Source of the DNA: Snowella sp.
GTDB taxonomy: Bacteria > Cyanobacteriota > Cyanobacteriia > Cyanobacteriales > Microcystaceae
Length of the DNA: 32,000 bases
Direction: 5' to 3'
Assembly (NCBI GenBank): GCA_035285545.1
Contig: JAYKGY010000062.1
Span: 1 to 32,000 of the forward strand
Every line of letters begins with the position of its first letter. The stretch's first letter is position 1. A model generated the notes under the pieces. It worked only from the letters and a program-made list of their open reading frames with translations, made no database searches and was not told the origin of the DNA. Made by a program: the position numbers and the translations under genes. Of this stretch, positions 3,060 to 31,905 are shown piece after piece.

Positions 3060-3172
3060 CTGACACTAACTTTAGGCAAAACGCCGAGATAAGAACATTT
3101 GTTCACAATACTTGCAAGCATACTGCTTTGACAGTAGCATGGGTACCTAGTTTTAGTTTCGCGCCCGAAAGC

Positions 3173-6854: not shown

Positions 6855-7077
6855 GGGTTCTCCTAAGGATTCTTATCGTTTGGATAATTAACGATAGTCG
6901 TTAAAAAAATGTTTATCTCTATATGTTTGAAATGTAGACCGAATCGGGCTTCAGGACAAGGGGCTTTGTCCATAACTCTATGAAATTTTGTTAAGAAATA
7001 AACGTCTAACGACTATAAGGAAGTCAATATTTTGGGATCTCGACGGCGATCGCTGTTATTAGGGGTCAGTCAGGAAA

Positions 7078-11553: not shown

Positions 11554-11639
11554 GGGGGTGTGGCGGAATGGTAGACGCTGCGGACTTAAAATCCGTTGAG
11601 CCTTATAAGCTCGTGAGAGTTCAAGTCTCTCCACCCCCA
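11554..11639 (+). tRNA. trnL: tRNA-Leu (anticodon UAA), class II long variable arm, no intron
   Basis: Acceptor stem gggggtg/caccccc plus discriminator a. Anticodon stem gcgga/tccgt with loop cttaaaa. Long variable arm tgagccttataagctcg. T arm gagag-ttcaagt-ctctc. Confidence 0.9.
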
Positions 11640-15544: not shown

Positions 15545-15648
15545 CCAAACTCCTTTTCTTTAGAAATGCTTAGGTTTTAGGGAAAACAGACGAAGAGTAT
15601 TCATCATAGAAATAACAGTGTTCCTGTAGTATCTACTCTGGGAAGATA

Positions 15649-17928
15649 ATGACTCCAGTTACTTCTACCATCTTGCGTCGAGTCCTATCGGATGTAGTCT
15701 TTGAGAAACTCGTTTCTTATTGGCAGGAATTGGCGAAGACCAATAGTAATAATACCATTCTTTTAACGGATGAGATTGGGATTGATGATCTGATAAATTA
15801 TCCCTTTCAAGTTAAACGCGATCGCTTCTCCCTTTTACTTTCTCCCCAGGGAAACGCTCTCCTACGAGGTCAACCTTTAACATCAGGTTATGATGTGAGT
15901 ATCATTGTTGATAATCAATTAATCACAGAGTTTTTAACCGAAATTGAGTGTTCAGATCAGATTAATTTAAAACAGCCAATCATCTCAGAACAACAATCTC
16001 ATTTTCAAGATCAGCTATTGCTTAAAGTCGTCGATATTATTCTGCCAGAATCCCTCAAGAAAGAAGCTTTTTTTCACACAGAAGCAATTAATAAAAACTC
16101 TAATTCTATTGCGATCGAGGCTGCTCTTTATCAACAAATTGCTCAGGAAAGATTATTAAGCCAAGTTATTGCACAAATTCGCCAAAGTCTAGAAGTTTCA
16201 ACGATTTTAGAGACTGCTGTGACTGAGGTTCGGCGTTTTCTGCAAGTTGATCGGTTAGTAATTTATCAATTCTCTGAACCCCATTTAACTCCGTTTCAAA
16301 GTGTCAATAGTAGAACCATTTATGGAGAAGTCACCTACGAATCGAGAATTTCTAATGCTATTCCATCCCTTCTACATTTAGTGACTGAAAATGATTGTTT
16401 TACTCAGGTTCCCCATTATCAAGAAAAATATTTAAATGGTCAAGTGGTTGCCATTGATCAAGTTGGAACGGCTTATTCTTCTTCCTTTTGCTTAGTAGAT
16501 CTATTACAAAAATATCAAATTGAAGCAAAATTAATTGCACCTATTTTAGTAAAAGGAAAGGTCTGGGGATTACTCATCGCTCATCAATGTTCCCATCAAC
16601 GCCAATGGCAAAAAAATGAAATTAGTTTTTTAGGACAAATTGGAGAACATTTAGCCGTTGCGATTTACCAAGCCCAACTTTATGCAGAAGTTCAGCATCA
16701 AAAAAATACCTTTGAGAAGCGTGTTGTTGAACGGACTCAAGATCTCCGAGATGCCCTACTAGCGGCCCAAGCCGCAAGCCATTTGAAGAGTGAATTTTTA
16801 GATAATATTAGCCATGAACTCCGTACCCCTTTAACCTGTGTAATTGGTTTATCAGGAACCCTACTCCATTGGTTTGAGCAGGAAAGATCCTTGTCATTAC
16901 AAAAACAACAAGCTTACTTGAAAATGATTCAAGATAGCGGCAAAAAATTAATGGGATTAATTAATGACATTATTGAACTTTCTCAACTAGAATCTGGTAA
17001 AGCCGCCCTCAATTTTCAAATTTTTTCAGTTTATAATTTGGCTCAAACAATTTTAGAACGTTTACAAGGGGAGGCTCAAAGTAAACAAATTCATTTGCAA
17101 CTTGATTTTCAAATGGATCTTAAGCATGATCAATTATGTGCTGATCCGGAGCGTATCCAACAAATTCTGTTGCATCTATTAGGTAATGGTCTTAAATTTA
17201 CCCCTGAACGGGGGAGTGTTATTTTGAGGATTTGGGAAGAAAAAAAACAAATTATTTTTCAGGTAGAGGATACGGGAGTTGGTATTGAGCAAGACCAATT
17301 TATTTTCTTATTTGAAGCCTTTAAACAATTGGATAGTACTCGTCAACGGAGTTATGAGGGAAGTGGTTTAGGATTAGCGTTAACGAAACAATTAGTCGAA
17401 TTACACGGTGGGAGTATTGACGTTGAATCGATTAAAGGAAAAGGATCTATTTTTACCATCTTTATTCCTGTTCAAAGTGTCGATAAAATCAGTGAACTTG
17501 TTCCTGTCTCCCTTGAGCCTGAAACGCCAACATTATTTAATTCAGGGGTTGTGGTATTAGAACGAAATGAAGAGGTTGCAACCCTGATTTGTGAGCTATT
17601 AACGGCGGCCGATTATCAGGTGATCTGGTTGATTGATAGTTCAATTGCGATTAAGCAAATTGAGTTATTACAACCGGGTATTGTTTTAATCGATCGCGAT
17701 TTTGAAGATGTGAAAATAATGAGTAAAATTCTCAAGCGATCGCAGTATCTTAAATCGATTAAAATAGTTGTTTTAAATGACAATCTCCCTCTAGAAGAAG
17801 AACAAGCTTATTTAGCTAGTGGCGTTGATGCTTTTTTGCCTAAACCGCTACAACCCGATGCTCTTTTACAGCAGCTAAATACATTGATTAATCATGACGC
17901 TGAGGGACTAACGGAGACGACAAACTAA
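15649..17928 (+). CDS. GAF-domain sensor histidine kinase with a C-terminal degenerate receiver domain (CikA-like architecture)
   Basis: 759 aa. GAF region about aa 170-340, H-box SHELRTPL, N/G boxes (LLGNGLKFT, DTGVGI, GSGLGLALT). The C-terminal REC-like fold has LERNEE in place of the acidic DD pair, LID retained and PKP present. Confidence 0.8.
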   Translation: MTPVTSTILRRVLSDVVFEKLVSYWQELAKTNSNNTILLTDEIGIDDLINYPFQVKRDRFSLLLSPQGNALLRGQPLTSGYDVSIIVDNQLITEFLTEIECSDQINLKQPIISEQQSHFQDQLLLKVVDIILPESLKKEAFFHTEAINKNSNSIAIEAALYQQIAQERLLSQVIAQIRQSLEVSTILETAVTEVRRFLQVDRLVIYQFSEPHLTPFQSVNSRTIYGEVTYESRISNAIPSLLHLVTENDCFTQVPHYQEKYLNGQVVAIDQVGTAYSSSFCLVDLLQKYQIEAKLIAPILVKGKVWGLLIAHQCSHQRQWQKNEISFLGQIGEHLAVAIYQAQLYAEVQHQKNTFEKRVVERTQDLRDALLAAQAASHLKSEFLDNISHELRTPLTCVIGLSGTLLHWFEQERSLSLQKQQAYLKMIQDSGKKLMGLINDIIELSQLESGKAALNFQIFSVYNLAQTILERLQGEAQSKQIHLQLDFQMDLKHDQLCADPERIQQILLHLLGNGLKFTPERGSVILRIWEEKKQIIFQVEDTGVGIEQDQFIFLFEAFKQLDSTRQRSYEGSGLGLALTKQLVELHGGSIDVESIKGKGSIFTIFIPVQSVDKISELVPVSLEPETPTLFNSGVVVLERNEEVATLICELLTAADYQVIWLIDSSIAIKQIELLQPGIVLIDRDFEDVKIMSKILKRSQYLKSIKIVVLNDNLPLEEEQAYLASGVDAFLPKPLQPDALLQQLNTLINHDAEGLTETTN

Positions 17929-18022
17929 GGGAGATTTGATAAAATACCAGCAATTATCCCGCTAAGTTTAAGGCTGCAAGCATTTTAAAACAATTATTTT
18001 AAAAAAATAAACTCAAAAATCA

Positions 18023-18574
18023 ATGTATTCTGACTATTCTGATTCCCCACCGGAAAGGCGTTTTCCCAAAGTCCCGCTAGACCGACGAGCCTATGCCTTT
18101 TTGTTAGATTTTGTCTCAGTTTGGCTATTAAGTTCCTTTGCATCAGGATTTTTACAAATCATCATTTTTTTAGGCTGTTGGTTTGGTTTGCGGGTGGTGT
18201 TAGTCGAAGTTAATCAGGGTCAAAGTTTAGGTACTTGGGCGTTTGATACGAAAGTGATCGATCTCCGCTTACGGCGAATCCCCGGTATTGTTGAATTATC
18301 GAAGCGGGAAGGCATTTTAGGGGGTGCCTCTTTACTCGCCATGATCGGACTGAATATTAATTTTATGAATGCAATTTCCATGCTGCTATTGGTGGCTCCC
18401 CTTGCCTTCGATTGTGGATTAGCCATTGGAGATGAAGCCTTACATCAAGCCTTCCACGATCGCGTAGCAGGAACAGCCATGATGCGGGCAAAACGGGGAT
18501 TTTCTTTAGATCTGCGTTTAAAAAGATTATGGTATGAAATAAAACGCCAATTGGATCAGCGAAGACAACGATAA
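18023..18574 (+). CDS. RDD-family membrane protein
   Basis: RRAYAFLLDFVSVWLL is an RDD-type motif. It is followed by several hydrophobic helices. Confidence 0.65.
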   Translation: MYSDYSDSPPERRFPKVPLDRRAYAFLLDFVSVWLLSSFASGFLQIIIFLGCWFGLRVVLVEVNQGQSLGTWAFDTKVIDLRLRRIPGIVELSKREGILGGASLLAMIGLNINFMNAISMLLLVAPLAFDCGLAIGDEALHQAFHDRVAGTAMMRAKRGFSLDLRLKRLWYEIKRQLDQRRQR

Positions 18575-18828
18575 CCCGATTCATTTTGATGATTGATTTA
18601 TTTAAATCGTAAAGATTGCTTAAAAAGCGGATTAATTGATTGCTTAATTGGCCTATCACAAAACGTAAAGATTTGTAATAGTAACGAAGGGATGATAGCC
18701 GAGAGTAAGAAAAAAACTGGTAGAATTTGGCATTAAGTAAACTGGATAACCTGTTGATTGTTTTCTTTTCGGGAAAACGAAAAATCGGTTTTTTTTGAAA
18801 TACGGACTTATTCAAGGAATAAACATCT

Positions 18829-19059
18829 ATGGCTATCAAACGTGGAGACATCGTTAGAATCAAACGTCCCGAATCCTATTGGTACGGTGATGTGGGAACT
18901 GTAGCAACAGTTGAAAAAAGCGGTATTCTCTATCCAGTGATCGTTCGTTTTGACCGCGTTAACTATAACGGGTTTAGTGGCAGTGCAACGGGCATCAACA
19001 CCAATAACTTTGCTGAAAGTGAATTGGAATTGGTTAAAGCCGCACCCGCAAAAGGTTAA
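18829..19059 (+). CDS. psaE: Photosystem I subunit IV (PsaE)
   Basis: [44 protein letters not shown] is near-identical to known PsaE. Confidence 0.95.
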
Positions 19060-19114
19060 TTAACCGTTAAGATTGGCAAGGAGTATTCCTTGTTGATTTT
19101 TTTATTAGCCGATT

Positions 19115-19963
19115 GTGCCAGAGTTACCTGAAGTTGAAACGGTTTGTCGGGGTCTTAATCGTTTGGCCTCGAATCAAGTCATTAAAGGGGGAGAGGTGTT
19201 GCTCCATCGCACGCTGGCTTACCCCTTTTCTGTTGAGGATTTTTGGCAGCAGCTACAGGGTGTTAAGATTCAAGTTTGGCAACGACGAGGCAAGTATTTA
19301 TTCGCTAAGTTAGAAAACGCAACGGGACAGTCGGCTGGTTTTCTGGGGGTTCATCTGCGGATGACAGGGCAATTACTTTGGGTTAACGCCACCGAACCGC
19401 GATCGCCTCATACTCGTATCGTGTTTGCCTGTGAGAATGGGAAAGAGTTACGCTTTGTCGATATTCGCACCTTTGGGAAAATTTGGGCAATTCCGCCGAA
19501 TGTTAAACCTGAAGCCATTATGACGGGGTTGCAGAACTTAGGCCCAGAACCTTTTGCTTCTGAATTTACAGTTGAGTATTTACAACAAAAGTTAGCCAAA
19601 AGTCAGCGATCGCTTAAAACTGCCCTACTGGATCAACGAGTAGTCGCAGGATTGGGGAATATTTACGCCGATGAAGTGTTATTTAAATCCGGCATTCACC
19701 CCACAACCTTAGGGAGTCAGTTAACTTCAACTCAGGTTGAAAAGCTACATGCGATGATTATTGAAGTCTTGAAAACTGCGATCGCGTCTGGGGGAACAAC
19801 CTTTAGTGATTTTCGAGATGTGACGGGACTTAATGGAAACTATGGCGGCGTTGCCTGGGTTTACGGTCGGCGCAATGAACCCTGTCGAGTTTGTGGAACC
19901 CAGATTGAACGAATTAAATTAGTAGGACGATCCAGCCATTTTTGCCCGCAATGCCAGAGATAG
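19115..19963 (+). CDS. mutM: Formamidopyrimidine-DNA glycosylase (Fpg/MutM)
   Basis: GTG start followed by PELPEVETV with the catalytic N-terminal Pro. H2TH region. C-terminal zinc finger CRVCGTQIERIKLVGRSSHFCPQCQ. Confidence 0.95.
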   Translation: MPELPEVETVCRGLNRLASNQVIKGGEVLLHRTLAYPFSVEDFWQQLQGVKIQVWQRRGKYLFAKLENATGQSAGFLGVHLRMTGQLLWVNATEPRSPHTRIVFACENGKELRFVDIRTFGKIWAIPPNVKPEAIMTGLQNLGPEPFASEFTVEYLQQKLAKSQRSLKTALLDQRVVAGLGNIYADEVLFKSGIHPTTLGSQLTSTQVEKLHAMIIEVLKTAIASGGTTFSDFRDVTGLNGNYGGVAWVYGRRNEPCRVCGTQIERIKLVGRSSHFCPQCQR

Positions 19964-20071
19964 ATTATATTTACAGGTAGTGATATATAGAGGAGGCTTA
20001 AACCTTTGCTAATCAGGAATTGTCGTCGTGTATCAAGTCCCAAATTGCTCCAATATAATTCTCCAAACTTT

Positions 20072-20440
20072 TACGCGATGTGCAACTAAGAAAAAATCTC
20101 ACAGCTAAAAGGCTATATCTCGCAAGCTCTCAAAACAGAACTGAGTCAGTACCATATTCAACTTGAAACTACTTTACGGGAAAATATGACTGATTTACGA
20201 CCTCAAGCATGGGTTAAATTATTCAATCGAGTCCGTCGTTTGATTGAGACGGTAATTGGTCAGTTAGCTGGACGATTTCATTTTGAGAGGATTTGGGCTA
20301 GAGATACTCGGCATCTCACCAGTCGGATTAATCGTAAACTCTTGGCTCATACGGTTTGTTATTGGCTTAATCGTCACTCTCCTGATCCCTTGCAATTTGA
20401 CAATTTAGTTTCCGTTTAGTTTTAGTTGCACACCGCGTTA
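20072..20440 (+). mobile_element. Internally deleted IS982-family insertion sequence (non-autonomous remnant)
   Basis: Terminal inverted repeats gcgatgtgcaactaa (20075-20089) and ttagttgcacaccgc (20422-20436) match at 14 of 15 positions. Only the transposase C-terminus survives: KGYISQALKTELSQYHIQLETTLRENM...RRLIETVIGQLAGRFHFERIWARD...KLLAHTV. It begins about 20 nt after the left IR. Confidence 0.6.
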
Positions 20441-20464
20441 ATTAATATATTTTGCCTTTACCCA

Positions 20465-20680
20465 ATGAATAGCAAAGATTTAGCCCGTTATATTGAAGCG
20501 ACTGATGGAATTTCTAAACCCTGGTTACTCAATCTCTTGCGGATGCAGATGCTGAAGGAAAATCGAGAAAATTTATCGCCAGAGGAATATGAAGCTAATA
20601 TTGAAGAATTACACCAATCTTTGATGAATTTAGGAGAATGGTGGGTTGGCATGGAAGATGAGGTATTTGGCCCTCAATAG
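20465..20680 (+). CDS. Small hypothetical protein (71 aa)
   Basis: The ATG at 20465 (MNSKDLARYIE...) is preferred to the TTG at 20426, which lies inside the IS inverted repeat. No family was recognised. Confidence 0.45.
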   Translation: MNSKDLARYIEATDGISKPWLLNLLRMQMLKENRENLSPEEYEANIEELHQSLMNLGEWWVGMEDEVFGPQ

Positions 20681-20801
20681 ATTTCTCGGTTTTGCAGTGA
20701 AGAATTCAAGAAATCTAAGATGAGTCGCAGGAAATTATATAAAAATCAAAAAAGTTAGACGAAATAGAGAAATTTGATTAAAGTCCCTATTTCTTCTTTT
20801 T

Positions 20802-21026
20802 TTATTCAAGAATTTCTAGTTCATCTTCTCGAAAATGCCCCCGAAAAGGCTTGGTAAATTTAACTAAAATAGGAAGGTTGGCACTAATAGGTCTTCCCTG
20901 CCAATCATTAAGAATTGCAATGATTTCGCCTTCCATCCCGTGGATATCAAAGGGTTGCTGTCTATGATCGGGATGGTGGTAAACAATGATCGAAGTTTTT
21001 ACACGGACGCGATCGCCAACTTTCAT
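20802..21026 (-). CDS. ftrV: Ferredoxin-thioredoxin reductase variable subunit
   Basis: MKVGDRVRVKTSIIVYHHPDHRQQPFDIHGMEGEI...WQGRPISANLPILVKF matches FtrV nearly residue for residue. Confidence 0.9.
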   Translation of the reverse strand: MKVGDRVRVKTSIIVYHHPDHRQQPFDIHGMEGEIIAILNDWQGRPISANLPILVKFTKPFRGHFREDELEILE

Positions 21027-21279
21027 AGTGTTTTTACTCTCTTATCTCCTCGTCGGTCTAAAAATCCGATTCAAGGATTCCTAAACGAACAATCTTATTA
21101 TTTTGGCATAGGATAGGCCCTATCAATCAAGTTGCAAGGTTTCTTCGTAATCGGGTGACGAGGGACAAAGGCATAAAAAATAAACAGGCGTTAAATTCCG
21201 CAGTTCTTTCTCAAGCTAGATTTAATCCAATGACACGATACTACGATGAGTCTTAGAGAGCTATGTAATTAATTGCGGT

Positions 21280-21732
21280 ATGGAAAATATCAAACAAATC
21301 AATGATGAACTGGCTGTTATCATGACTCAAGTAACTCCCGAACAAGTTCATCAGTTATCTCAAGCGGGATTTAAGTCCATTCTCAATTTAAGATTGCCGA
21401 GTGAGGAGGGCTTTTTAACGACTGAACAAGAGCAAGCCAAAAACGAAGGGCTGGAATACGTTAATATCCCCGTTAAGTCTGATTCCATGAACGATGAGTT
21501 AGCGGATCAGGTGATTCATACCATTGACCAATTACCTAAGCCTCTCCTAATTCACTGCAAAACCGGAATGCGTTCTGGGGCAATGGCATTAATGTATGTT
21601 GCAACTCAACAACAAATGACGGCTGAAGAAGCATTAGCAATGGGCAAGCAGAATGGGTTTGATTGTGATGCTTATCCCCAAATGAAGCAATTTTTTGAGC
21701 ATTATGTTACAGAAAATACGCAGATTTTTTAA
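21280..21732 (+). CDS. DUF442/TIGR01244-type phosphatase-fold sulfur-transfer protein (Blh N-domain-like)
   Basis: 150 aa with the CX5R loop HCKTGMRS. It sits immediately upstream of the MBL-rhodanese gene, the arrangement found in sulfide-detoxification operons. Confidence 0.7.
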   Translation: MENIKQINDELAVIMTQVTPEQVHQLSQAGFKSILNLRLPSEEGFLTTEQEQAKNEGLEYVNIPVKSDSMNDELADQVIHTIDQLPKPLLIHCKTGMRSGAMALMYVATQQQMTAEEALAMGKQNGFDCDAYPQMKQFFEHYVTENTQIF

Positions 21733-21791
21733 AAGCAAGCAACCGTCAGCTTTTGTTGTGCTTCAGGAGTAAAAATCGGAGGAAATTGGTA

Positions 21792-23198
21792 ATGGCACTA
21801 GTTTTAGAGCAATTCAATGTGGAAGGATTAGCCCAGCTATCCTATCTTGTCGGTGATGATAAAGCAGGGGTTGCTGCAATTATTGATCCTCGTCGCGATG
21901 TTGATCCGTATCTGCAACGGGCGAGAGAGTTAGGGGTCAGATTAATTGCGAGCGTAGAAACCCATATCCATGCAGATTTTGTATCGGGTTCCCATGAACT
22001 CAAGGCCCGTCTGGGAGTCCCCATTTATGGAGGGAAGAGTGATGCCTATCAATTTGAGCTACATCAGCTTCAAGAGGGGGATGAATTAACCTTGGGAAAC
22101 ATCAAGCTTAAAGCAATTCATACGCCAGGCCATACCCCTGAGCATATTTCCTTACTCATTTACGATGCCAAGCAGGGACAAGAACCTTTCGGTTTGTTTA
22201 CCGGAGATACGCTGTTTAATTTAGATGTGGGTCGTCCCGATTTGTTAGGCGGCGGTACTGAAAAGACTTTAGCCGCTCAGCTCTATCACAGTCTGTTTGA
22301 TAAAATTCTGCCGTTAGGCGATCGCATCGAAATTTATCCTTGTCATGGGGCCGGATCTGCCTGTGGAAAAGCCATCGGCGATCGCCGTCAAAGTACGATT
22401 GGAAACGAACGAATTTTTAACCCAGCTCTACAGGAACGCTCTGAACAGGACTTTATTGAATGGCTATTGGGAGGAATGCCCGAACCACCCCGCCACTACG
22501 CCCGACTTAAAAAAATTAATGCTCAAGGTGCCCCCATTTTAGGTTGTCCTCCGACTTTGCAACCGCTTACCCCCCAAGAATTCCAACAAAAAATGCAGGA
22601 TGACAACACCTTAATTATTGATGCCCGCTCTATTCTGGCCTTTGGTGGTGGCCATATTCCAGGCGCGATTAATATTGCCCTGCGTCCAGAGTTTCCTAAT
22701 TGGGTTGGTTGGATGATTGAACCTGAGCGATCGCTGTTAATCGTGGTAGAAAGTGAGCGAGATGTCCAACTGATCGCAGAACAGCTATTTCGGATGGGTT
22801 ATGACCATTTAGCCGGTTATTTACACGACGGAATGACAAGCTGGCAGAATGCAGGATTACCCCTACAACAGGTCACGGAATGGACGGTGCAGGAATTAAA
22901 TCAACACAAAGATGATCCCAAAATCACGGTGTTAGATGTGCGGGGGGATGAGGAATATGAGCAAGGATTTATTCCTGGGGCTGAACATATCTTTGTCGCC
23001 CATCTCGAAGAGCATTTGAATCAGTTGGATAAGGAACAAGCGATCGCGACCTACTGTGGCAGTGGTTATCGAGCCTCGATTGCCGCTAGTCTGTTGCAGA
23101 AACATGGATTTAAAACAACAATTAACATTCCTGGGTCTTGGATCGCTTGGAAAAACGCGAATTTACCGATTCAACAATTCGAGCCTGTCCCTTCCTAA
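21792..23198 (+). CDS. MBL-fold persulfide-dioxygenase-like protein fused to two rhodanese domains
   Basis: Metal motif ETHIHADFVSG, plus HTPGHTPEH and CHGAGSACG. Two rhodanese-like modules end with the active-site loop CGSGYRAS. The ATG at 21792 is preceded by GGAGG and is preferred over the TTG at 21753. Confidence 0.8.
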   Translation: MALVLEQFNVEGLAQLSYLVGDDKAGVAAIIDPRRDVDPYLQRARELGVRLIASVETHIHADFVSGSHELKARLGVPIYGGKSDAYQFELHQLQEGDELTLGNIKLKAIHTPGHTPEHISLLIYDAKQGQEPFGLFTGDTLFNLDVGRPDLLGGGTEKTLAAQLYHSLFDKILPLGDRIEIYPCHGAGSACGKAIGDRRQSTIGNERIFNPALQERSEQDFIEWLLGGMPEPPRHYARLKKINAQGAPILGCPPTLQPLTPQEFQQKMQDDNTLIIDARSILAFGGGHIPGAINIALRPEFPNWVGWMIEPERSLLIVVESERDVQLIAEQLFRMGYDHLAGYLHDGMTSWQNAGLPLQQVTEWTVQELNQHKDDPKITVLDVRGDEEYEQGFIPGAEHIFVAHLEEHLNQLDKEQAIATYCGSGYRASIAASLLQKHGFKTTINIPGSWIAWKNANLPIQQFEPVPS

Positions 23199-23309
23199 GC
23201 TTATAGACGAAATCACGATTTCAAAAAAAGTGAGACCAATATGGCCAGTTAGATGTGATAGCATAAGAAATGCTGTGTTTTAGCAAAAGAATTCTAATCG
23301 AAAAGTCTT

Positions 23310-23612
23310 ATGGCAAAAAAATCCATGATTGAACGCGAGAAGCGTCGTAGTAAGCTCATCGCCAAATATTCAGAAAAACGGGAACAACTCAAAGAAGAAT
23401 TTCGCCAAGCAACTACTTTAGACGAAAAATTAACGCTTCAACGTCAATTACAACAGTTACCCCGTAATAGCTCCCCCAACCGCCACCGTAACCGTTGTTT
23501 AGTAACTGGTCGTCCTAGAGGATATTATCGGGATTTTGGTTTATCTCGTAACGTCTTCCGGGAATGGGCCCATGAAGGGTTATTACCTGGGGTTGTTAAA
23601 TCCAGTTGGTAG
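23310..23612 (+). CDS. rpsN: 30S ribosomal protein S14
   Basis: [13 protein letters not shown]...[40 protein letters not shown]. Confidence 0.95.
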
Positions 23613-23670
23613 TTCAGTAAATTTTAGTTATTGCTGAATTCATTAAGAGGTAAATGAAGTTAATTGGGTA

Positions 23671-23760
23671 ATGAGCATTATGGTGTTGCTGTTACTAATT
23701 TTTCTGGTTTGCCTTTTATTATTGGGTTTATTGGTAATGGCGAATAGCGGCGATCGCTGA
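23671..23760 (+). CDS. Candidate small hydrophobic peptide (29 aa)
   Basis: MSIMVLLLLIFLVCLLLLGLLVMANSGDR is a single predicted TM helix. It is preceded by a 5-codon mini-ORF (23654-23671, MKLIG) whose TAA overlaps this ATG as TAATG. No homology was recognised. Confidence 0.25.
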   Translation: MSIMVLLLLIFLVCLLLLGLLVMANSGDR

Positions 23761-23798
23761 TTAAGCTTTATAGTTAAAATTTTGAATATTAGCAAGAA

Positions 23799-23853
23799 AC
23801 CTATAGTAAAGTTGCAAAGTTTTGGCTCTACTATAGGTAGTTTTATTTTTTGA
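23799..23853. terminator. Stem-loop between rpsN/small ORF (+) and rubrerythrin (-); candidate bidirectional terminator
   Basis: acctatagta (23799-23808) pairs with tactataggt (23829-23838), a 10-bp perfect stem with a 20-nt loop. It is followed by agttttatttttt. Confidence 0.5.
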
Positions 23854-23860
23854 TGAATCT

Positions 23861-24559
23861 TTAGGCAGCGATCGCTTCTTGGTAGGGAACAAAACTTTTC
23901 TTCTGGGCACCACAAATCGGACAACGCCAATCATCGGGAATCGCTTCAAAGGGAGTACCCGCCGCAATACCGGAATCGGGATCACCGACGATGGGATCAT
24001 AAATCACGGAACACTGACGACAGATCCACTTTTGAGTTGCCGCTTTGGGAGTCGGAGCAATGCCCTTTAAGCCATTTAAGGCTTCGGTATATTGTTGGGC
24101 GTGGTGCTTTTCAATGGGGGTTAACAGGCCAAAATTATGGGCGGCTTTACGGAAAATTGCAGCATGTTCTTTAGATTCCGCAACTTGGCTTGCAAATTCA
24201 GCAGCAGCATCCTCATCCCGATCCACTATGGCCTGAGCCGTGAATTCGGGGTACATGGTGGTGTATTCGTAGGTTTCCCCTTCAATGGCTAATTCTAAGC
24301 AACGGGCAGCGATCGCTTGTTTTTGTTCAGAGGTTAAACTCGCCGGATCACTCACGACTAATTCGGGGTGAATTAAACGGAAATGGGCAAAAGCGTGTTC
24401 TGTCTCTTGATTGGCGGTTTCCTTAAAAAGTTTAGAAAGGTCAGAAAAACCAAGTTGACGAGCCACTTCAGCAAAAAAGAGATACTTGCGATTGGCCATG
24501 GATTCCCCGCCAAACGCCGCTTCTAAATTTTTACTGGTATTCGCATTCGAGAGATCCAT
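23861..24559 (-). CDS. Rubrerythrin-family diiron protein with a C-terminal rubredoxin domain
   Basis: N-terminal ferritin-like four-helix region (NLEAAFGGESMANRKY, ETEHAF, EGETYEY, EKHH). C-terminal WICRQCSVIYDP...DDWRCPICGAQK carries the rubredoxin CxxC...CxxC. Confidence 0.85.
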   Translation of the reverse strand: MDLSNANTSKNLEAAFGGESMANRKYLFFAEVARQLGFSDLSKLFKETANQETEHAFAHFRLIHPELVVSDPASLTSEQKQAIAARCLELAIEGETYEYTTMYPEFTAQAIVDRDEDAAAEFASQVAESKEHAAIFRKAAHNFGLLTPIEKHHAQQYTEALNGLKGIAPTPKAATQKWICRQCSVIYDPIVGDPDSGIAAGTPFEAIPDDWRCPICGAQKKSFVPYQEAIAA

Positions 24560-24624
24560 CGATAATCCTCAGAGGTTGTGCAGATGTTGAGCTAAATTAT
24601 CATGCCATATTGTAGCGATCGCTG

Positions 24625-25935
24625 TTACCAAGGGCTACCAATTAGGGAAAAACCGGCCCAATAAAAGGGATGGGAGAGATCCTGGGGTTGGGGCGTACTT
24701 AAAATGGCGGGGAGTGTGACATTCCCTCTAGAACTAATTAATTCACCTTGTTTTAGGTAAACTTGACGGCGAATCATGGCAATCTGAGTTTGTTGCAACG
24801 CATCGGCTTTATTTAACGTTGTTTTTAAGCGTTGATAAAATTCACTCATTAAGGCCAAGGTTCCCGCATCACTCACTGACCAAAAACTAGCTAAGGCAGA
24901 TTTAACCCCTGCTTGTAGGGCCAAGCCGGAAAAACCTAGCTCTACATCCTTATCGCCCACAGCAGTCTGGCAAGCACTCAGAACTAACAATTCAACCGGC
25001 GGCTGATTTAACCCTAGTTCGGGCAGATCGGCTAAGGTTAATTTGCGATCGCTAAATTGAATATAGGACTGATTCGGCTCACCAGGCTGAAAACTAGCAT
25101 GGGTTGCTAAATGGAGAATTTGAAACGGTTCACTTTGACGCAGAGTATTCAAATTATTAACCGTAAATCCCTGATTGAGAACGGATCGTCCCTCCCACGG
25201 CGTATCAAGAATGGTATCAAGTTCAATGGCGACTCCGGGTAAAGCCGGTTGCTCCTCAAATTTTGAGGCTCCCATCGCTAAAACTTTAGCGTTTCGTAAT
25301 TTTCCTTGATCAATTTCCGATAAATTAAAGCCTGGAATACGGGTCAGACTATATTTTTCAATCAAAAATTGTTTTCCGTCATAGAGGGCTGAAAGGGGTA
25401 AAGACCGTAACCCTTCCCCTAAACACAGAATTAAAGTGTCAATCTTATTGACTTGTAACTCGGATTCAATCGGCGCAATCAACCAATCGTACAGTTGTTT
25501 ACCCAAGATTAAATAGTCCTCTGAAGGTTTGTTTTGGACAATTTCCGACAAAAAGGATTGAATAATCGGAGAGAGCTTAGCTTGATTGACTTCCGGGTTT
25601 TCTTGATGAATTAGTGGTTTTCCGGGCGCAATTAAATACAAATTCAGTTTTTCTGAATTGGCTGCTATCCAGAGAACCGCAGGATTTTTTTGGGTTTTCT
25701 GTTGTAGGGTTAATAATTCTTGCGCGATCGCGGTTGCCCCTAAGCCTTTATGGGAAAAATCTCCTTGAAAATAGTTATTGTATTGATTCTGCCAGCGACC
25801 TTCGAGTTGAATAACGGGATCGGCTTTACCTTCGGGAGAAATCGTTTGAGACAATAGGGAATGATGGATGCCGATAATCATTAAAGCAGTCAACCCTATG
25901 GCCAAACAGTATTTTTTTAGTCGATAAAAATTCAT
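24625..25935 (-). CDS. CHAT-domain (caspase-fold) protease with an N-terminal signal/anchor
   Basis: 436 aa. It has a hydrophobic N-terminus. LHLATHASF is the catalytic His region and LLVLSACQTAVGD the catalytic Cys region. ASFWSVSDAGTLALMSEFY is typical of the CHAT C-terminus. Confidence 0.85.
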   Translation of the reverse strand: MNFYRLKKYCLAIGLTALMIIGIHHSLLSQTISPEGKADPVIQLEGRWQNQYNNYFQGDFSHKGLGATAIAQELLTLQQKTQKNPAVLWIAANSEKLNLYLIAPGKPLIHQENPEVNQAKLSPIIQSFLSEIVQNKPSEDYLILGKQLYDWLIAPIESELQVNKIDTLILCLGEGLRSLPLSALYDGKQFLIEKYSLTRIPGFNLSEIDQGKLRNAKVLAMGASKFEEQPALPGVAIELDTILDTPWEGRSVLNQGFTVNNLNTLRQSEPFQILHLATHASFQPGEPNQSYIQFSDRKLTLADLPELGLNQPPVELLVLSACQTAVGDKDVELGFSGLALQAGVKSALASFWSVSDAGTLALMSEFYQRLKTTLNKADALQQTQIAMIRRQVYLKQGELISSRGNVTLPAILSTPQPQDLSHPFYWAGFSLIGSPW

Positions 25936-28035: not shown

Positions 28036-28107
28036 GGGTCGCTAGCTCAGCGGTAGAGCACTCGGCTTTTAACCGAATGGTCTTGGGTTCGAATCCCAGG
28101 CGACCCA
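28036..28107 (+). tRNA. trnK: tRNA-Lys (anticodon UUU)
   Basis: Acceptor stem gggtcgc/gcgaccc plus a. D arm gctc-agcggta-gagc. Anticodon loop cttttaa. T arm tggg-ttcgaat-ccca. Length 72 nt with no encoded CCA. Confidence 0.9.
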
Positions 28108-28113
28108 TAAAAG

Positions 28114-28233
28114 ATGATATCTGATGCTGATGCTTTATCTCTTAAAGCCCCTGCTAATGCTCGACATATAGAAGAAGCGATCGCGAAATATAAAGCGGGT
28201 AAAAAACAAGAACATGATTTAATCAATGCGTAA
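28114..28233 (+). pseudogene. C-terminal remnant of a Phd/YefM-family antitoxin, truncated at the tRNA-Lys boundary
   Basis: The frame opens only at 28111, directly after the tRNA 3' end. MISDADALSLKAPANARHIEEAIAKYKAGKKQEHDLINA* resembles the YefM C-terminal half (..LxxSPxNAxxLxxSIxxxxxGK..). The N-terminal half is absent. Confidence 0.5.
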
Positions 28234-28540
28234 GTGAACCTGGGCTAGTAAAGCGTTACTATCATTGTCAAGATTAGTAGGATTCGCTGAGTTTGTACGC
28301 GCTTGCTTTTTTTAATAGTTTCTTGGTTGTTGAAGCAGTTTTAAGAAAGTGAGATATCCGCAAAATAGCAGATTTGCCAATATAACATGCCTTTAAGACT
28401 AGTAAAAATAAATTTAGAACGATTTCGCGTCATTCTTATGAAGAATTGTACACTCTTCTTAACTCTAGAGATTTTTATGTCATGAAACCCTGAATTTAGA
28501 ATCTTGAGGATATACGTTTTTAGGGCATACTATAGCAATC

Positions 28541-28777
28541 CTAAATGATTTGTGTTATTGAGAAGCCTGAAACCCTTACCCAGCGTAGATCAATATTTGC
28601 AACCTGTTTAGGACTGCTATATAATGATGAAAAACTTCTGGTTCTTCTGGTTTCTGTGTAGAAATAAGGTTTATACAGATGCTTTTTTCCTAGAGTAGTC
28701 TTTAAAGCCTTGCCCAATGAGTGTTTCACAGCTAAAAAAAATATCACACACAGTAGTGAAGAGCAAACCTCTTTCAA
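28541..28777 (-). CDS. Hypothetical ORF in the AT-rich islet (TTG start); doubtful
   Basis: The only support is that an open frame is unusual in DNA this AT-rich. The composition is atypical and no motif was recognised. Confidence 0.15.
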   Translation of the reverse strand: MKEVCSSLLCVIFFLAVKHSLGKALKTTLGKKHLYKPYFYTETRRTRSFSSLYSSPKQVANIDLRWVRVSGFSITQII

Positions 28778-28782
28778 TCATG

Positions 28783-29055
28783 CTATTTGCAGATAATATA
28801 AAGACAAAAATTTCTTAATAAAATTTGTATTTGGAGTGATATATGGGAAATTTTTGTACAATCTAATCTATTGTCTCTAGTCGAGATTGGGCTAGTAAAA
28901 ACAGTAGGCTTTGCTGATGAGTTTCGAGAAGTTATCTGTGATCGCAAAGATATAATGAACATCAACTGATCAGAATATAACAAAGCATTGGAGCAGACAA
29001 TATTGACATTTTTCGTTCCGTTAAAAGGAGAACACTTTCTGCTTAATTCAGCCAT
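28783..29055 (-). CDS. Hypothetical ORF in the AT-rich islet; doubtful
   Basis: A 90-codon ATG ORF is longer than expected by chance at about 30% G+C. The protein is Ser/Ile/Cys-rich with no recognisable fold or motif. Confidence 0.2.
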   Translation of the reverse strand: MAELSRKCSPFNGTKNVNIVCSNALLYSDQLMFIISLRSQITSRNSSAKPTVFTSPISTRDNRLDCTKISHISLQIQILLRNFCLYIICK

Positions 29056-29117
29056 TAAGGCAGAGATCTTCTTATTTCAAAAGCTTAATACATGTTTAAT
29101 TTTTATTTTGTAAAACT

Positions 29118-29432
29118 ATGACCTATCAAATCACAGCTAAACTTCTCGAACGTCAAATAAATTCACTAAAATCAGCTCTTCCACAACTTAAAGATAACTT
29201 TCCAAAAGCTACTCCAGCTTTAACTGTAGGAGCAGCAGTAGGTGCATTAGTAGGGCACTATGTACAAAAAGCTTTAGAGGATGGCAGCAATATATACAAA
29301 TACGAGGAAGAATTGTCTTCTTTTATTTTTGATGTTAATCCTCTAGAAATTGTAAATAATAAATTGTCTTGCAGCGAACTCATCAAAATCCGAAAGAATA
29401 TTTTTATTCAGAGGACTCAAGGCAAAGAGTAG
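29118..29432 (+). CDS. Small glycine-zipper protein (104 aa), first gene of the islet operon
   Basis: An N-terminal amphipathic helix is followed by ATPALTVGAAVGALVGHYV (GxxxGxxxG glycine zipper) and an acidic YKYEEELSSFIFD segment. Its stop lies 23 nt before the next ATG. Confidence 0.5.
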   Translation: MTYQITAKLLERQINSLKSALPQLKDNFPKATPALTVGAAVGALVGHYVQKALEDGSNIYKYEEELSSFIFDVNPLEIVNNKLSCSELIKIRKNIFIQRTQGKE

Positions 29433-29455
29433 TTATAAAGTATTGGTGCTCGAAT

Positions 29456-30001
29456 ATGTTATGGAGTAGCGTCATTTATCACGAGAAATATTTTTATGTT
29501 GTTTTTTCTCTGTATTTTATATGGTTTGCCCTAACACTACTAACACAAAGCACAAGTAAAGTTTCTAAATCCATTAAACAATATGACTTTTTTTCATTAA
29601 TTCCTTCATGGCATTTTTTTGCTCCGAATCCATCTGTTTCAGATTATGACATTTTGTATCGAACAAAGACAAAATTAGGTCAGGAAAGCGATTTTATTGT
29701 AGCTTATATTACTCCAATAAAAACGATAAAGAATATTTTAATTAATCCTCAAAAAAGGAAGCAAAAAGTTTTTTTTGATACAACATATATGCTTTTAGAA
29801 ATTTCATCAAAGAAAGATCATAAACATATTGTGCTTACTATTCCATATCTTTTGAATCTACACTATGTATCTAACATTGTAAAGAATAGCAAAGTTAAAG
29901 CTGATGCATCTCAGATTCAATTTGCTATTGCAGAGACGAAAAATAAAGGGCTTTACTTTACGACAAGAATAGTCTTTTTGTCATCATGGCATGAACTTTG
30001 A
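29456..30001 (+). CDS. Membrane-anchored HTTM-partner protein (SdpA/DUF5819-like)
   Basis: 181 aa from the ATG at 29456; the track's TTG at 29369 overlaps the upstream gene. N-terminal TM helix YFYVVFSLYFIWFALTLL. The IPSWHFFAPNPSVSDYDILYR motif resembles the W-x-(L/F)-F-(A/T)-P signature I recall from proteins encoded next to HTTM/SdpB genes. Confidence 0.5.
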   Translation: MLWSSVIYHEKYFYVVFSLYFIWFALTLLTQSTSKVSKSIKQYDFFSLIPSWHFFAPNPSVSDYDILYRTKTKLGQESDFIVAYITPIKTIKNILINPQKRKQKVFFDTTYMLLEISSKKDHKHIVLTIPYLLNLHYVSNIVKNSKVKADASQIQFAIAETKNKGLYFTTRIVFLSSWHEL

Positions 30002-30007
30002 ATATTT

Positions 30008-30832
30008 ATGAACAATATTACTACTGTAGAAAATATTATTTTATTTTTTGCTTTGATAGGATTGATTATTGTTGATCTAGAATATCTTTTAACCTCTTCA
30101 ATATACAGTCAACAAAGTTTGCTGACATGGCAAATACTTAGAATTAGAAGCGAGTATTTAAAATCAAATAAAATCGCTCAATACCTAGATGTATTTTTTG
30201 ACTATCCAGGCATTATTTTTATATTTGGATGTAGATTGTTTTTTTCGCTATTTTCTTTGCTAATATTAGCACAAAATAGTTCTTATAACTTATTTTTAAT
30301 TTTTGGAATTTTTATTTTGACCTTGCTTGTTAACTATCGTAATCCATTAGGTCAAGATGGTTCCGATCAAATGCTAAATATAATTATTTGTATTTTATTA
30401 ATAAATAAACTATTTTCAGGAAATTTTCAAGTTCGTGAAATAGGAATTTTTTTTATCTGCCTTCAATCATGTTCATCTTATACTATTGCAGGTTTAGCAA
30501 AATCAATAGGAAATAAATGGTTAGAGGGAAATGCTGTAACTGAAATTTTAAGTACACGCTCTTATGGGAATCTTTATGTTGCTAATTTACTAAATAAAAA
30601 TCTATGGCTAGGAAAAATATTAACGTGGAGTTCGATCATCATAGAAACTATTTTTCCTTTTGTAATTATTCTTCCTAATCCATACTGGAGCTTTTTTTTA
30701 GCATGGGGATTCTTGTTTCATTTATTTAATGCTATTGTGATGGGTCTTAATGTATTCTTCTTAGCATTTATTGCCACTTATCCTGCGATCATATATGTGC
30801 ATTTGGTAATTGAAAGATTACTAAATAAATGA
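30008..30832 (+). CDS. HTTM-domain / SdpB-like polytopic membrane protein
   Basis: 274 aa with about 8 TM helices. NPLGQDGSDQMLNIIICILLI (GGDQ-like motif), AGLAKSIGNKWLEGNAVTEIL and FHLFNAIVMGLNVFFLAF resemble conserved blocks of the SdpB/HTTM (vitamin-K carboxylase-related) family. It starts 6 nt after the previous stop. Confidence 0.6.
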   Translation: MNNITTVENIILFFALIGLIIVDLEYLLTSSIYSQQSLLTWQILRIRSEYLKSNKIAQYLDVFFDYPGIIFIFGCRLFFSLFSLLILAQNSSYNLFLIFGIFILTLLVNYRNPLGQDGSDQMLNIIICILLINKLFSGNFQVREIGIFFICLQSCSSYTIAGLAKSIGNKWLEGNAVTEILSTRSYGNLYVANLLNKNLWLGKILTWSSIIIETIFPFVIILPNPYWSFFLAWGFLFHLFNAIVMGLNVFFLAFIATYPAIIYVHLVIERLLNK

Positions 30833-30958
30833 TAATGTGATTGCGACTTTTTAAGGAAGCATGCCTTGATGAGCCGTTTACTACTGTTTTCACCCCAATT
30901 CAGTGGCAATTAATATTAACCAAATCGAAAAATGATTTAAAATTCCATCAAAAGGTAA

Positions 30959-31099
30959 GTGCAATCCGATGGAAGAATGCGTTTTTGGTCAAAAATCGAG
31001 GAAATGGATGGAAAATACTTGCGTGTTATCCTGTTGGAAGACGGAGAAACTGTTCATAATGCTTTTTTTGACAGAAGTTTTAAGGAGTTAGCAGAATGA
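30959..31099 (+). pseudogene. Probable degraded toxin gene (DUF4258-like C-terminus) coupled to the DUF2283 gene
   Basis: This short frame, not in the ORF track, reads (V)QSDGRMRFWSKIEEMDGKYLRVILLEDGETVHNAFFDRSFKELAE*. GKxLxVxxxxxxxxxxVxTAFxDR resembles the end of DUF4258 toxins. Its stop overlaps the next start as ATGA. The N-terminal part is missing or scattered across frames. Confidence 0.35.
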
Positions 31100-31293
31100 A
31101 GATTCAATATTTTGAAGGTACCGATACCCTGTTTATTACTTTTTCTAATAAAATTCCTGTCGAAACTCGTGATTTGGATGAAAATACGCTATTAGATTTA
31201 GATGAAGAAGGACAACTTTGCAGCATGACCGTCGAACACGCAAAAGAAAGAGTCGGCATTCCTGAAGTTGAATATGAAACAATTTCGGCTTAA
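31096..31293 (+). CDS. DUF2283-domain protein (putative antitoxin)
   Basis: MKIQYFEGTDTLFITFSNKIPVETRDLDENTLLDLDEEGQLCSMTVEHAKERV follows the DUF2283 pattern (Y D xx D xL xI ... D xD xxG xxxG IE I). Confidence 0.8.
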   Translation: MKIQYFEGTDTLFITFSNKIPVETRDLDENTLLDLDEEGQLCSMTVEHAKERVGIPEVEYETISA

Positions 31294-31312
31294 TTCAGTT
31301 TAATTTATCAAT
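31267..31312 (+). repeat. Direct repeat copy A (3' end of the DUF2283 gene plus downstream)
   Basis: gttgaatatgaaacaatttcggcttaattcagtttaatttat. Compare copy B at 31858. Confidence 0.7.
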
Positions 31313-31857: not shown

Positions 31858-31905
31858 GTTGAATATCACCAATTTCAGCTTAATTCAGTTTAAATTTTAT
31901 TAAAA
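31858..31905 (+). repeat. Direct repeat copy B
   Basis: gttgaatatcaccaatttcagcttaattcagtttaaattttat. It matches copy A at roughly 85% by eye and lies 591 bp to its right. Confidence 0.7.

Follow-up and report, generated by a model that had tools for sequence, protein, structure and literature searches.

In a 32,000-nucleotide (nt) stretch of DNA from the cyanobacterium Snowella sp. (assembly GCA_035285545.1, contig JAYKGY010000062.1, positions 1 to 32,000; this whole stretch is hereafter called the window), three adjacent genes, named here P1, P2 and P3, probably form a conserved, horizontally acquired operon for a minimal linaridin-type peptide-maturation system without the LinE component. 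According to the list of open reading frames (ORFs) all three are located on the + strand: P1 (29118–29432) encodes a precursor-like protein of 104 amino acids (aa) similar to LinA of type C2, P2 (29456–30001) a LinL/DUF5819-like protein of 181 aa when read from its ATG, and P3 (30008–30832) a polytopic membrane protein of the HTTM/LinG/SdpB superfamily of 274 aa, with spacers of 23 nt between P1 and P2 and of 6 nt between P2 and P3. This layout had been described correctly in an earlier reading of the window made from its sequence alone (the original prediction), in which P3 was likened to HTTM/SdpB and P2 to SdpA/DUF5819 proteins; linaridins were absent from it, although judging from sequence comparison the closest described relatives are linaridin clusters (LinA/LinL/LinG) of the predicted type C2, i.e., clusters for peptides that are made by ribosomes and modified after translation (RiPPs).

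The assignment is carried by three matches, obtained in part from a set of 90 loci with P3 homologues, including the best 80 genome loci (L010–L089). BLASTP aligned P2 over 175 aa with WP_116048513.1 (27% identity, E 1e-20), and exact look-ups identified this protein as a P2 paralogue in L065 and WP_091675004.1 as one in L069; both are published as type C2 "LinL accessions" and bear the NCBI name "DUF5819 family protein". A hidden Markov model (HMM) made solely with 13 type C2 LinA candidates from the literature matched P1 of the window with an E-value of 1.2e-3 among 5165 ORFs, its best non-actinobacterial match, in a collinear alignment placing ATP of P1 at the cut-site, ALTVGAAVGALVGHYVQKALEDG at the hydrophobic core and SCSELIKIRKN at the terminal motif. 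The clusters that hold the published LinL and LinA genes (L065, L068, L069) also contain homologues of P3 (31–35% identity, E ~1e-38). Taken together, these matches argue that the trio P1/P2/P3 corresponds to LinA/LinL/LinG. The P1-like ORFs of the actinomycete loci L068 and L069 are identical to published type C2 LinA candidates, an example being that of Amycolatopsis antarctica, MNGIEKAAQ...APVLATPAAAAVV...GRSGAELLNIRAEGLRG (L068 1449–1787), and the published candidates all end in the same C-terminal motif as P1.

Linaridin clusters encode a precursor, LinA, with a PxxxTP leader/core junction, a membrane protein, LinG, an alpha/beta hydrolase, LinE (LinH being a LinE-LinG fusion), and LinL, a protein of about 175 aa with a signal peptide and a non-cytoplasmic domain whose function is unknown (bioRxiv 10.1101/2020.07.09.196543). 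Deletion of cypL, cypH, legG or legE leads to the loss of linaridin production, the enzyme dehydrating Thr is unconfirmed, and RODEO as run by Georgiou et al. matched LinG homologues to PF05090, LMF1 and TIGR04033 (bioRxiv 10.1101/2020.07.09.196543). In that 2020 survey, for which LinE was required, the linaridin clusters were actinobacterial save two; the RODEO-valid type C2 set, listed in its Supplementary Dataset 4, stems from earlier genome mining of Actinobacteria (ref. 33 therein; bioRxiv 10.1101/2020.07.09.196543). No isolation of a type C2 product was found in the literature searched.

With type C2 LinA proteins P1 shares the TP junction, an Ala/Gly-rich hydrophobic stretch, an acidic linker and the terminal [DE]-L-[LI]-x-x-R, which adds to the homology of P2 with LinL and the presence of P3 homologues in these clusters. 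The window differs from type C2 clusters in lacking the LinE alpha/beta hydrolase, the LinT exporter, LinM and LinD, in the tightly packed order P1-P2-P3, in having PxxTP instead of PxxxTP and no FANxxL leader motif, and in its host, a cyanobacterium rather than a member of the Actinobacteria. The clusters of the characterised linaridins cypemycin, legonaridin and corynaridin (CypH/CypL, LegG/LegE/LegL and CrdG/CrdE/CrdL) similarly contain a pair made up of an HTTM-type protein and LinL, both essential, and their precursors have a hydrophobic core following an xTP junction. In these, by contrast, the core is C-terminal and rich in Thr, which becomes dehydrobutyrine (Dhb), no cluster lacks LinE and tailoring enzymes usually occur as well, whereas P1 of the window has a 55-residue extension after its hydrophobic segment and few Thr residues.

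A 1092-bp metagenome contig (L090) with 81% nucleotide identity to the window retains the P1-P2-P3 order as well as the 23-nt gap, and pairwise ratios of nonsynonymous to synonymous substitution (dN/dS; Nei-Gojobori method, NG86) between the two are 0.26 for P1, 0.20 for P2 and 0.27 for P3. All three ORFs, the small P1 included, are therefore real genes under purifying selection. There is hardly any chance that they are fortuitous ORFs or decaying remnants: AT-rich DNA does easily give rise to long ORFs, gene fragments lie nearby and the scan of the operon region for promoters and terminators yielded signals no different from those of shuffled sequence, but against this stand the selection acting on all three genes, homologues with kept synteny in at least nine phyla and confident structure predictions. 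The spacing of the genes suggests that they are co-transcribed, and no internal terminator was detected within P1-P2-P3 by the terminator scan. In the NCBI annotation of a Snowella sp. metagenome-assembled genome (MAG) the same 181-aa and 274-aa products appear as the hypothetical proteins VKJ02_08225 and VKJ02_08230; an alternative, longer start of P2 would be the TTG at 29369, overlapping P1. An exact look-up of the P1 sequence returned no database record, and no further relatives came from a metagenome scan with P3 of the window or from a viral-contig scan with the P3 profile.

P3 is, on transitive and structural grounds, best described as a short and divergent member of the HTTM superfamily with the predicted transmembrane (TM) fold of the human carboxylase GGCX. 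A large-database search returned 29 homologues with 27–40% identity (E 1e-19 to 1e-50), which form alignment A1, the basis for all statements on invariant residues of P3; when these were scanned singly, TIGR04033 (SdpB) was matched by 23 of the 29 (best 9e-11), PF05090 (HTTM) by eight (best 6.9e-10) and LMF1 by two. The AlphaFold2 model of P3 made on this alignment is of high confidence (predicted local distance difference test (pLDDT) 93, predicted template modelling score (pTM) 0.90), and in a Foldseek search of the PDB its top matches were the human GGCX structures 9bux_A and 9wf3_A (prob 1.00, TMq 0.57), the remaining ones having a prob of at most 0.13, with the exception of a pectin methylesterase inhibitor that matched over a short part only (prob 0.60, E 4.1). 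No similarity of P3 to GGCX is detectable by HMM at the sequence level, and PDB sequence searches with the P3 or the P2 family, either as a profile or as a single sequence, found nothing even at E<=10.

The motifs quoted in the original prediction can all be read in the three proteins, namely DGSDQ, AGLAK...W.EGNA and H..N...MGL in P3, WHFFAPNP in P2, and GAAVGALVG and YKYEEEL in P1. Within P3, D-G-S-D-Q (residues 117–121; 30356–30370, + strand) contains the invariant G118 and Q121 (DGSDQM), A-G-L-A-K...W (30488–30520, +) the invariant K165 and W171, and H238-x3-A-x3-G-L-N (30719–30751, +) the invariant H238, A242, G246 and N248; G162, F250 and the ATYP motif are further invariant positions. 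The distance from K165 to W171 equals that between Lys189 and Trp195 in a published model of another HTTM protein (bioRxiv 10.64898/2026.08.19.745780). K165 is a candidate catalytic Lys and W171 a candidate Trp of a quinone pocket. K165 may be the counterpart of GGCX Lys218; the sequence searches yielded no residue alignment of P3 with GGCX.

P2 consists of an N-terminal TM anchor (residues 12–30) and an alpha/beta domain, and by its sequence it is a LinL/DUF5819 homologue. A search with the single P2 sequence retrieved one relative, while translation of the genes beside the P3 homologues revealed clear P2 homologues, which a local HMM located in 87 of the 90 P3-type loci, usually ending where P3 starts; the pairing of an HTTM protein with a partner, put forward in the original prediction, is thus a recurrent one. 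With the P2 family profile, a word-indexed database yielded 180 proteins and an exhaustive one 1826 cluster representatives, 1543 of these at E<=1e-10; nearly all are unnamed. PF19136 (DUF5819) was matched by 16 of 29 P2-family members (best E 4.8e-7), so that together with the BLASTP result the DUF5819 half of the earlier assignment holds; the SdpA half does not, since neither P2 nor any of the 29 members matched SdpA (TIGR04034 / PF17418) at E<=0.1, and the identification of P2 as SdpA is ruled out. P0267, a protein of 441 aa considered as a possible P2-P3 fusion, was dismissed by BLASTP. The AlphaFold2 model of P2 (pLDDT 88) has a small alpha/beta domain after the N-terminal TM helix. Conservation within the family is highest in W-H-F-F-A-P-N-P (residues 52–59; 29609–29632, + strand; alignments A2 and A3), where P50, F54, F55 and P57 are invariant in and around the motif. 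Residues 51–60 are the sole low-confidence stretch of the monomer model (pLDDT 59) between confident flanks, which suggests that the motif may be an interface loop.

P1 has no signal sequence at its N-terminus; after a leader helix, three parts of it stand out. P-K-A-T-P (residues 29–33; 29202–29216, + strand) resembles the PxxxTP leader/core junction of linaridins while being one residue shorter; it is aligned to the "atp" cut-site of the C2 LinA HMM and kept in L090 (LPKATP), and KATP, QVTP or TTP stand at the same place in P1 proteins of Bacteroidota and others. It is followed by a hydrophobic Gly/Ala-rich segment (residues 34–49; 29217–29264, +), a candidate core or membrane segment. The glycine zipper seen there in the original prediction exists as a pattern, GxxxGxxxG (G38, G42, G46) being present and kept in L090, but not as a family match, the Pfam glycine-zipper models PF13488 and PF05433 giving 14.5–15.1 bits (E 0.02–0.035) with gathering cutoffs of 24–25. 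The third part is a conserved C-terminal helix motif (S84–I97, SCSELIKIRKNIFI; 29367–29408, +; found by the motif HMM), for which the family consensus is [DE]-L-[LI]-x-x-R-x-x-hydrophobic and which is a candidate recognition element.

In L002, L005, L007 and about 25 loci of Bacteroidota the place next upstream of P2 is taken by a P1-like ORF, present twice in L002, with an N-terminal helix, (K/Q)xTP, an Ala/Val/Gly-rich stretch and the terminal motif (...GLSLDKLIELRKKFN in Pedobacter, ...SCSELIKIRKNIF in P1 of the window). An iterated P1 HMM placed such ORFs directly upstream of P2 in 40 of the 90 loci, and in most other loci the ORF upstream of P2, 75–335 aa in length, still ends in the same consensus; the HTTM-partner pair therefore does recur with a P1-like gene, in favour of the original prediction. 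With an HMM of the 17-residue motif, 59 of 5165 six-frame ORFs scored at least 9 bits and 59/59 were inside P2/P3 clusters, the motif ending a median of 2 residues from the C-terminus; its specificity is somewhat circular, with 21 seeds taken from these same loci, yet 59 ORFs were recovered and no outsiders. The motif also occurs in the published C2 LinA candidates. P1 is accordingly a conserved partner of P2/P3 and a plausible substrate or precursor, and the presence of this conserved family beside P2/P3 supports the substrate or precursor role suggested in the original prediction.

P1 might instead be no RiPP-like precursor at all and serve as a structural or regulatory third subunit, or be one of many C-terminally tagged cargos of a P2/P3 sorting or processing machine. 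This we regard as unlikely, even though family members range from 75 to 335 aa, with N-terminal parts that are unrelated or domain-sized and a common motif about 2 residues from the end, the tripartite layout of TP motif, hydrophobic segment and terminal helix recalls C-terminal sorting signals, and one half of the GGCX clamp is missing from DUF5819+HTTM pairs (bioRxiv 10.64898/2026.08.19.745780). Tagged proteins were seen only beside P2/P3, although dispersed cargo was not searched for, they carry no N-terminal signal peptides, and actinomycete clusters hold several P1 paralogues that vary in their middle regions; such small hypervariable paralogues, accompanied by ABC exporters, are typical of RiPP precursors. 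Long members of the P1 family (142–335 aa) are encoded at L074 2666–3421, L080 2607–3380, L081/L085 2580–3369, L088 847–1692, L077 2859–3410, L079 3006–3434, L086 2372–3379 and L067 2570–3415; besides a conserved N-terminal domain (...YNGGRL..E.TL.EH...AVALRH.P.LT..E.AA.E.VP..QLE.N...) they have a Cys motif (GDCC/AGC) as well as a hydrophobic segment and the common C-terminal helix.

Homologues of the cassette with kept synteny were found in at least nine phyla. Among the 80 genome loci 50 are non-actinobacterial, comprising 28 from Bacteroidota, 11 from Acidobacteriota, 3 from Myxococcota and singles or pairs from other phyla (Planctomycetota, Chloroflexota, Gemmatimonadota, Verrucomicrobiota and Eremiobacterota), with none from Pseudomonadota or Bacillota among these best 80. 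The genome scan relied on one peptide pattern, which P3 of the window itself (FFLAFIATYP) fails to match; this taxonomic picture is therefore biased, and cyanobacterial relatives may have been missed. Two architectures can be distinguished. Architecture I, LinA(s)-LinG-[ABC exporter]-LinE-LinL, characterises 22 loci of actinomycetes, namely Amycolatopsis, Prauserella, Saccharomonospora, Kutzneria, Kitasatospora and some Streptomyces; LinA often comes there as several paralogues, accompanied by a LuxR regulator and another LinL. Architecture II, in which P1-P2-P3 are tightly packed and no LinE-like gene is present, is found in the window, in 50 of the 50 non-actinobacterial loci and in Nocardia, Kineococcus, Geodermatophilus and some Streptomyces.

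Several accompanying genes were noted in these loci. Type C2 actinomycete clusters have two divergent LinL/P2 paralogues about 5 kb apart (L065 372–947 and 5802–6398; L069 290–865 and 5772–6401; L051 2934–3500 and 5793–6368), one alone of which is the published LinL accession. In Bacteroidota loci a gene for a DCC1-like thiol-disulfide oxidoreductase directly follows P3 and a HisKA_3/LuxR two-component pair is present, whereas the islet of the window has neither. The DCC1-like gene (L014 4789–5205; L010 4687–5235; PF04134, E 2e-25) and the P3 homologue overlap at the stop codon of the latter, and in about a dozen Bacteroidota loci ORFs of 127–139 aa occupy the same place, as judged from position only without a Pfam scan; its product is a possible cofactor-recycling partner. 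The HisKA_3 histidine kinase and LuxR/GerE response regulator travel with the cassette together with two further genes (184 and 220 aa), as seen at L014 1218–2786, at the equivalent positions in Pedobacter and Mucilaginibacter and at L001 8251–10855, the set being upstream in most Pedobacter loci and downstream in L010. In L071, from a Phycisphaerales MAG, a radical S-adenosylmethionine (SAM) gene (2268–3461; PF04055, E 1.6e-21) takes the usual place of P1 upstream of P2. Directly upstream of P1 in L005 is a gene for a 457-aa protein (1625–2998) without a Pfam match, in which HGMGEQ...SHSLG resembles by eye a lipase-like nucleophile elbow; this could be a very divergent LinE analogue. The closest non-cyanobacterial locus, L002, has tandem P1 paralogues (3519–3839 and 3961–4287), and its cassette is flanked by two inverted FtsK/SpoIIIE genes (876–2474 and 5912–7549).

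A number of observations weigh against interpreting the three genes as a linaridin-type system. LinE, present in every accepted linaridin cluster, is missing from the islet that holds the operon, and a jackhmmer search with an actinomycete LinE-like query gave strong matches in the 22 actinomycete loci alone, the window segment and the 50 non-actinobacterial loci yielding none; weak matches in the non-actinobacterial loci were discarded as out-of-frame overlaps with P3. P1 of the window has only two Thr residues (T32, T36) near its putative core, so that no Dhb-rich linaridin product is evident. On the Kyte-Doolittle scale its hydrophobic segment falls below the TM threshold, which is exceeded in the homologues of L002 and L005, P1 proteins of Bacteroidota are without a hydrophobic segment of TM level, and some family members, with 250–335 aa and a conserved N-terminal domain, are atypical of RiPP precursors. 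When the window proteins themselves are compared with family models, P3 does not match PF05090 even at E<=10 and reaches 18 bits (E 0.0017) with TIGR04033, the curated cutoff of which is 178.4 bits, while P2 reaches 16 bits (E 0.019) with PF19136 over residues 51–82 only, below the gathering cutoff of 27.1; the HTTM/SdpB label given to P3 in the original prediction therefore stands at the level of the HTTM superfamily and not as a direct match to either model. Foldseek returned no GGCX-like match for the P2 model. Finally, no transporter, protease or immunity gene is found among the ORFs of the islet, which is awkward for a toxin.

The original prediction had drawn on SdpABC of Bacillus subtilis, and a cannibalism or competition toxin of the SdpABC/YitPOM type has to be weighed, with P3 as SdpB, P2 as SdpA and P1 as an SdpC-like pro-toxin released to kill siblings or competitors. 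There are real points of resemblance: SdpB and YitO belong to the HTTM superfamily and require a small partner protein, most P3-family members match the SdpB model, the locus lies on a foreign islet, and the 42-residue SDP, a hydrophobic peptide internal to SdpC that needs SdpAB for its excision from the longer precursor, is analogous to the hydrophobic segment of P1 with its N- and C-terminal extensions. The likeness is nevertheless one of superfamily-level analogy only, and such a toxin system is improbable here. The score of P3 is about a tenth of that demanded for SdpB, outside the equivalog of which it falls, and SdpA is unrelated to P2 by sequence; SdpC is Sec-secreted and 203 aa in length, whereas P1 is without a signal peptide and its gene comes first in the operon; closer relatives are found in the LinL and LinG families, and the Sdp host belongs to Bacillota. 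SdpI and SdpR accompany the sdp operon but no such immunity or regulator gene is among the ORFs of the islet, and the absence of SdpC, SdpI and SdpR homologues from the locus, already remarked upon in the original prediction, was upheld, so that this is not an Sdp system.

As to how a linaridin-type system of this composition might work, P2 and P3 would together constitute a split GGCX-like enzyme, with P3 as the quinone-binding catalytic core (K165, W171, H238, F250) and P2 as a substrate-clamp domain, the WHFFAPNP (FF) loop of which would reach into the pocket. P1 would be the client: its C-terminal amphipathic helix ([DE]-L-[LI]-x-x-R) may dock on P2 in the manner of a propeptide or follower peptide, thereby placing the TP motif and the Gly/Ala-rich segment at an active site at the membrane interface, where modification of P1, its excision, or both would yield a small peptide that is hydrophobic and membrane-active. 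Such a product would parallel both linaridin cores and the internal 42-residue SDP. The reaction could be Thr dehydration as in linaridins, carboxylation or proteolytic processing. The active site would face outwards by homology to GGCX and the Sec-secreted SdpC, the positive-inside rule being uninformative for the topology of P2 and P3, and phylloquinone, which cyanobacteria make, could be the cofactor. The P2-P3 complex, the role of the P1 helix, the topology and the quinone dependence are thus suggested by analogy.

Human GGCX (PDB 9bux, 9wf3, 9L54) provides the structural side of this analogy, P3 reproducing the fold of its TM domain and the proposed relation of P1 helix, P2 and P3 mirroring that of a propeptide helix bound to the lumenal clamp about 25 A from the membrane-interface active site. 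GGCX differs in being a single 758-aa chain with two clamps and a C-terminal domain (CTD), in the lack of detectable sequence similarity and in its recognition helix, which is N-terminal there and C-terminal in P1. In an AlphaFold3 model of an adjacent DUF5819 and HTTM(-DCC1) pair from Melghirimyces thermohalophilus the complex resembles whole GGCX, the DUF5819 TM helix aligning with a GGCX TM helix, its domain taking the position of the GGCX clamp and its Leu59/Phe60 touching the menaquinol pocket of Lys189, Trp195 and Phe273 (bioRxiv 10.64898/2026.08.19.745780). The window shares with this pair a TM-anchored DUF5819 protein beside an HTTM protein and the conserved Lys/Trp/Phe at the quinone pocket (K165, W171 and F250 of P3, all invariant), and the DCC1 domain fused to the Melghirimyces HTTM protein has its counterpart in the DCC1-like gene following P3 in Bacteroidota relatives; P3 of the window has neither this domain nor a neighbouring DCC1 gene, and the preprint names no substrate. 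A fused bacterial HTTM carboxylase, MloH, is experimentally proven (bioRxiv 10.64898/2026.08.19.745780), but it acts on a polyketide synthase–nonribosomal peptide synthetase (PKS-NRPS) intermediate and not on a ribosomal peptide.

These parallels raise the question of a genuine vitamin-K-dependent (VKD) carboxylase, in which P2/P3 with phylloquinol, O2 and CO2 would carboxylate Glu or Asp residues of P1 (e.g., in YKYEEEL) and the C-terminal helix would act like a VKD propeptide. The GGCX-like fold of P3 with its invariant Lys and Trp, the carboxylase-like complex proposed for DUF5819+HTTM and the proven activity of MloH (bioRxiv 10.64898/2026.08.19.745780) speak in its favour, as do the DCC1-like oxidoreductase of Bacteroidota, which could recycle the cofactor, and the acidic stretch kept in the L090 orthologue. 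All phyla of the locus set make menaquinone or phylloquinone, and Pseudomonadota are absent from the 80 genome loci, which would also fit. Yet the Glu-rich stretch is kept in this close orthologue only and the P1 family as a whole shares no conserved Glu or Asp, which weakens the idea of a gamma-carboxylation target put forward in the original prediction; in the bacterial model the substrate channel of GGCX is blocked (bioRxiv 10.64898/2026.08.19.745780), linaridins and SDP are not known to be carboxylated, and no similarity to GGCX is detected by HMM. A true carboxylase is for these reasons distinctly unlikely. As a separate observation, the P1 motif [AS]-x-[DE]-L-[LI]-x-x-R (e.g., AAQLLQARRALL or GAELLNIRA) recalls the C-terminal half of vertebrate VKD propeptides, the consensus of which is A(-10)..I/L(-7)L(-6).R(-4)..R(-1); the P1 motif has one extra residue before the Arg.

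A broader generalisation, which we consider doubtful, would make HTTM+DUF5819 pairs a widespread equivalent, in bacteria, of the propeptide-directed vitamin K carboxylase: a protein-modifying machine driven by naphthoquinone at the membrane interface and choosing its clients, from 75-aa peptides to 335-aa proteins, by the C-terminal helix tag [DE]-L-[LI]-x-x-R, with the LinE-less Snowella cassette as its minimal form and the maturation of linaridins and SDP as specialised offshoots.

The component families (HTTM, DUF5819/LinL and the type C2 LinA candidates) are already named, and HTTM+DUF5819 as a split GGCX has been published as a 2026 prediction (bioRxiv 10.64898/2026.08.19.745780), so this is not a categorically new system but a compact and testable entry into unresolved enzymology. 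The literature searched contained no account of the LinE-less three-gene form, of its spread outside Actinobacteria including a cyanobacterium, or of the conserved C-terminal helix that marks the co-encoded client across loci. Two questions have been open for more than 10 years, namely which enzymes install the class-defining modification of linaridins and what SdpA and SdpB do to SdpC, and both systems rest on an HTTM protein and a small partner of unknown function. The trio of HTTM protein, LinL/DUF5819 protein and precursor is a self-contained unit without LinE, transporter or tailoring genes that extends far beyond Actinobacteria; as a three-gene cassette it offers a minimal system for reconstitution, with the C-terminal helix as a concrete recognition element that can be tested, and with it a GGCX-like enzyme is found in a phylloquinone-producing organism. 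Were the chemistry quinone-dependent, vitamin-K-type catalysis would be extended to bacterial ribosomal peptides.

The operon is located in a low-GC islet (28500–31000; GC 0.25–0.34 against about 0.42 for the window outside it) as determined from the composition profile and a HIP1 scan, the 41 HIP1 octamers of the window being absent between 28185 and 31451, and at the upstream edge of the islet ARAGORN identified a tRNA-Lys(UUU) gene (28036–28107, + strand). The original prediction of an AT-rich, compositionally foreign, tRNA-adjacent and HIP1-free islet is borne out by these data. A second copy of the tRNA-Lys 3' end, as an integration repeat, was looked for and not found. The idea of a defence module gained no support, PADLOC defence models matching none of P1, P2 and P3. 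The remaining ORFs of the islet are only fragments and a DUF2283 gene, and the window outside it carries ordinary cyanobacterial genes such as those for Psb28, Mg-chelatase, bilin reductase and GluTR. At 11624–25935 the window additionally encodes a SinI-type restriction endonuclease together with a C5 DNA methylase, as well as a CHAT-domain protein and a set of exporter components (ABC/HlyD/FtsX); the operon adjoins none of these.

Small ORFs around the operon lie at 28114–28233, 30959–31099 and 31096–31293. The toxin-antitoxin debris reported in the original prediction was partly verified: the 39-aa ORF directly after tRNA-Lys ends in ...RHIEEAIAKYKAGKKQEHDLINA, which has by eye the look of an antitoxin C-terminus, and near the operon there is the DUF2283 gene (E 1e-14), preceded by an overlapping 46-aa ORF without a family match. 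A 21-nt direct repeat, AACACTTTCTGCTTAATTCAG, is present in three copies (29031–29051, 31278–31298 and 31868–31888; 86–100% identity), the first being 67 nt upstream of P1 and the second just past the DUF2283 gene, so that the operon is bracketed by them, and copies 2 and 3 extend to 27 nt; these repeats could be the boundaries of the islet or a dispersed cyanobacterial repeat.

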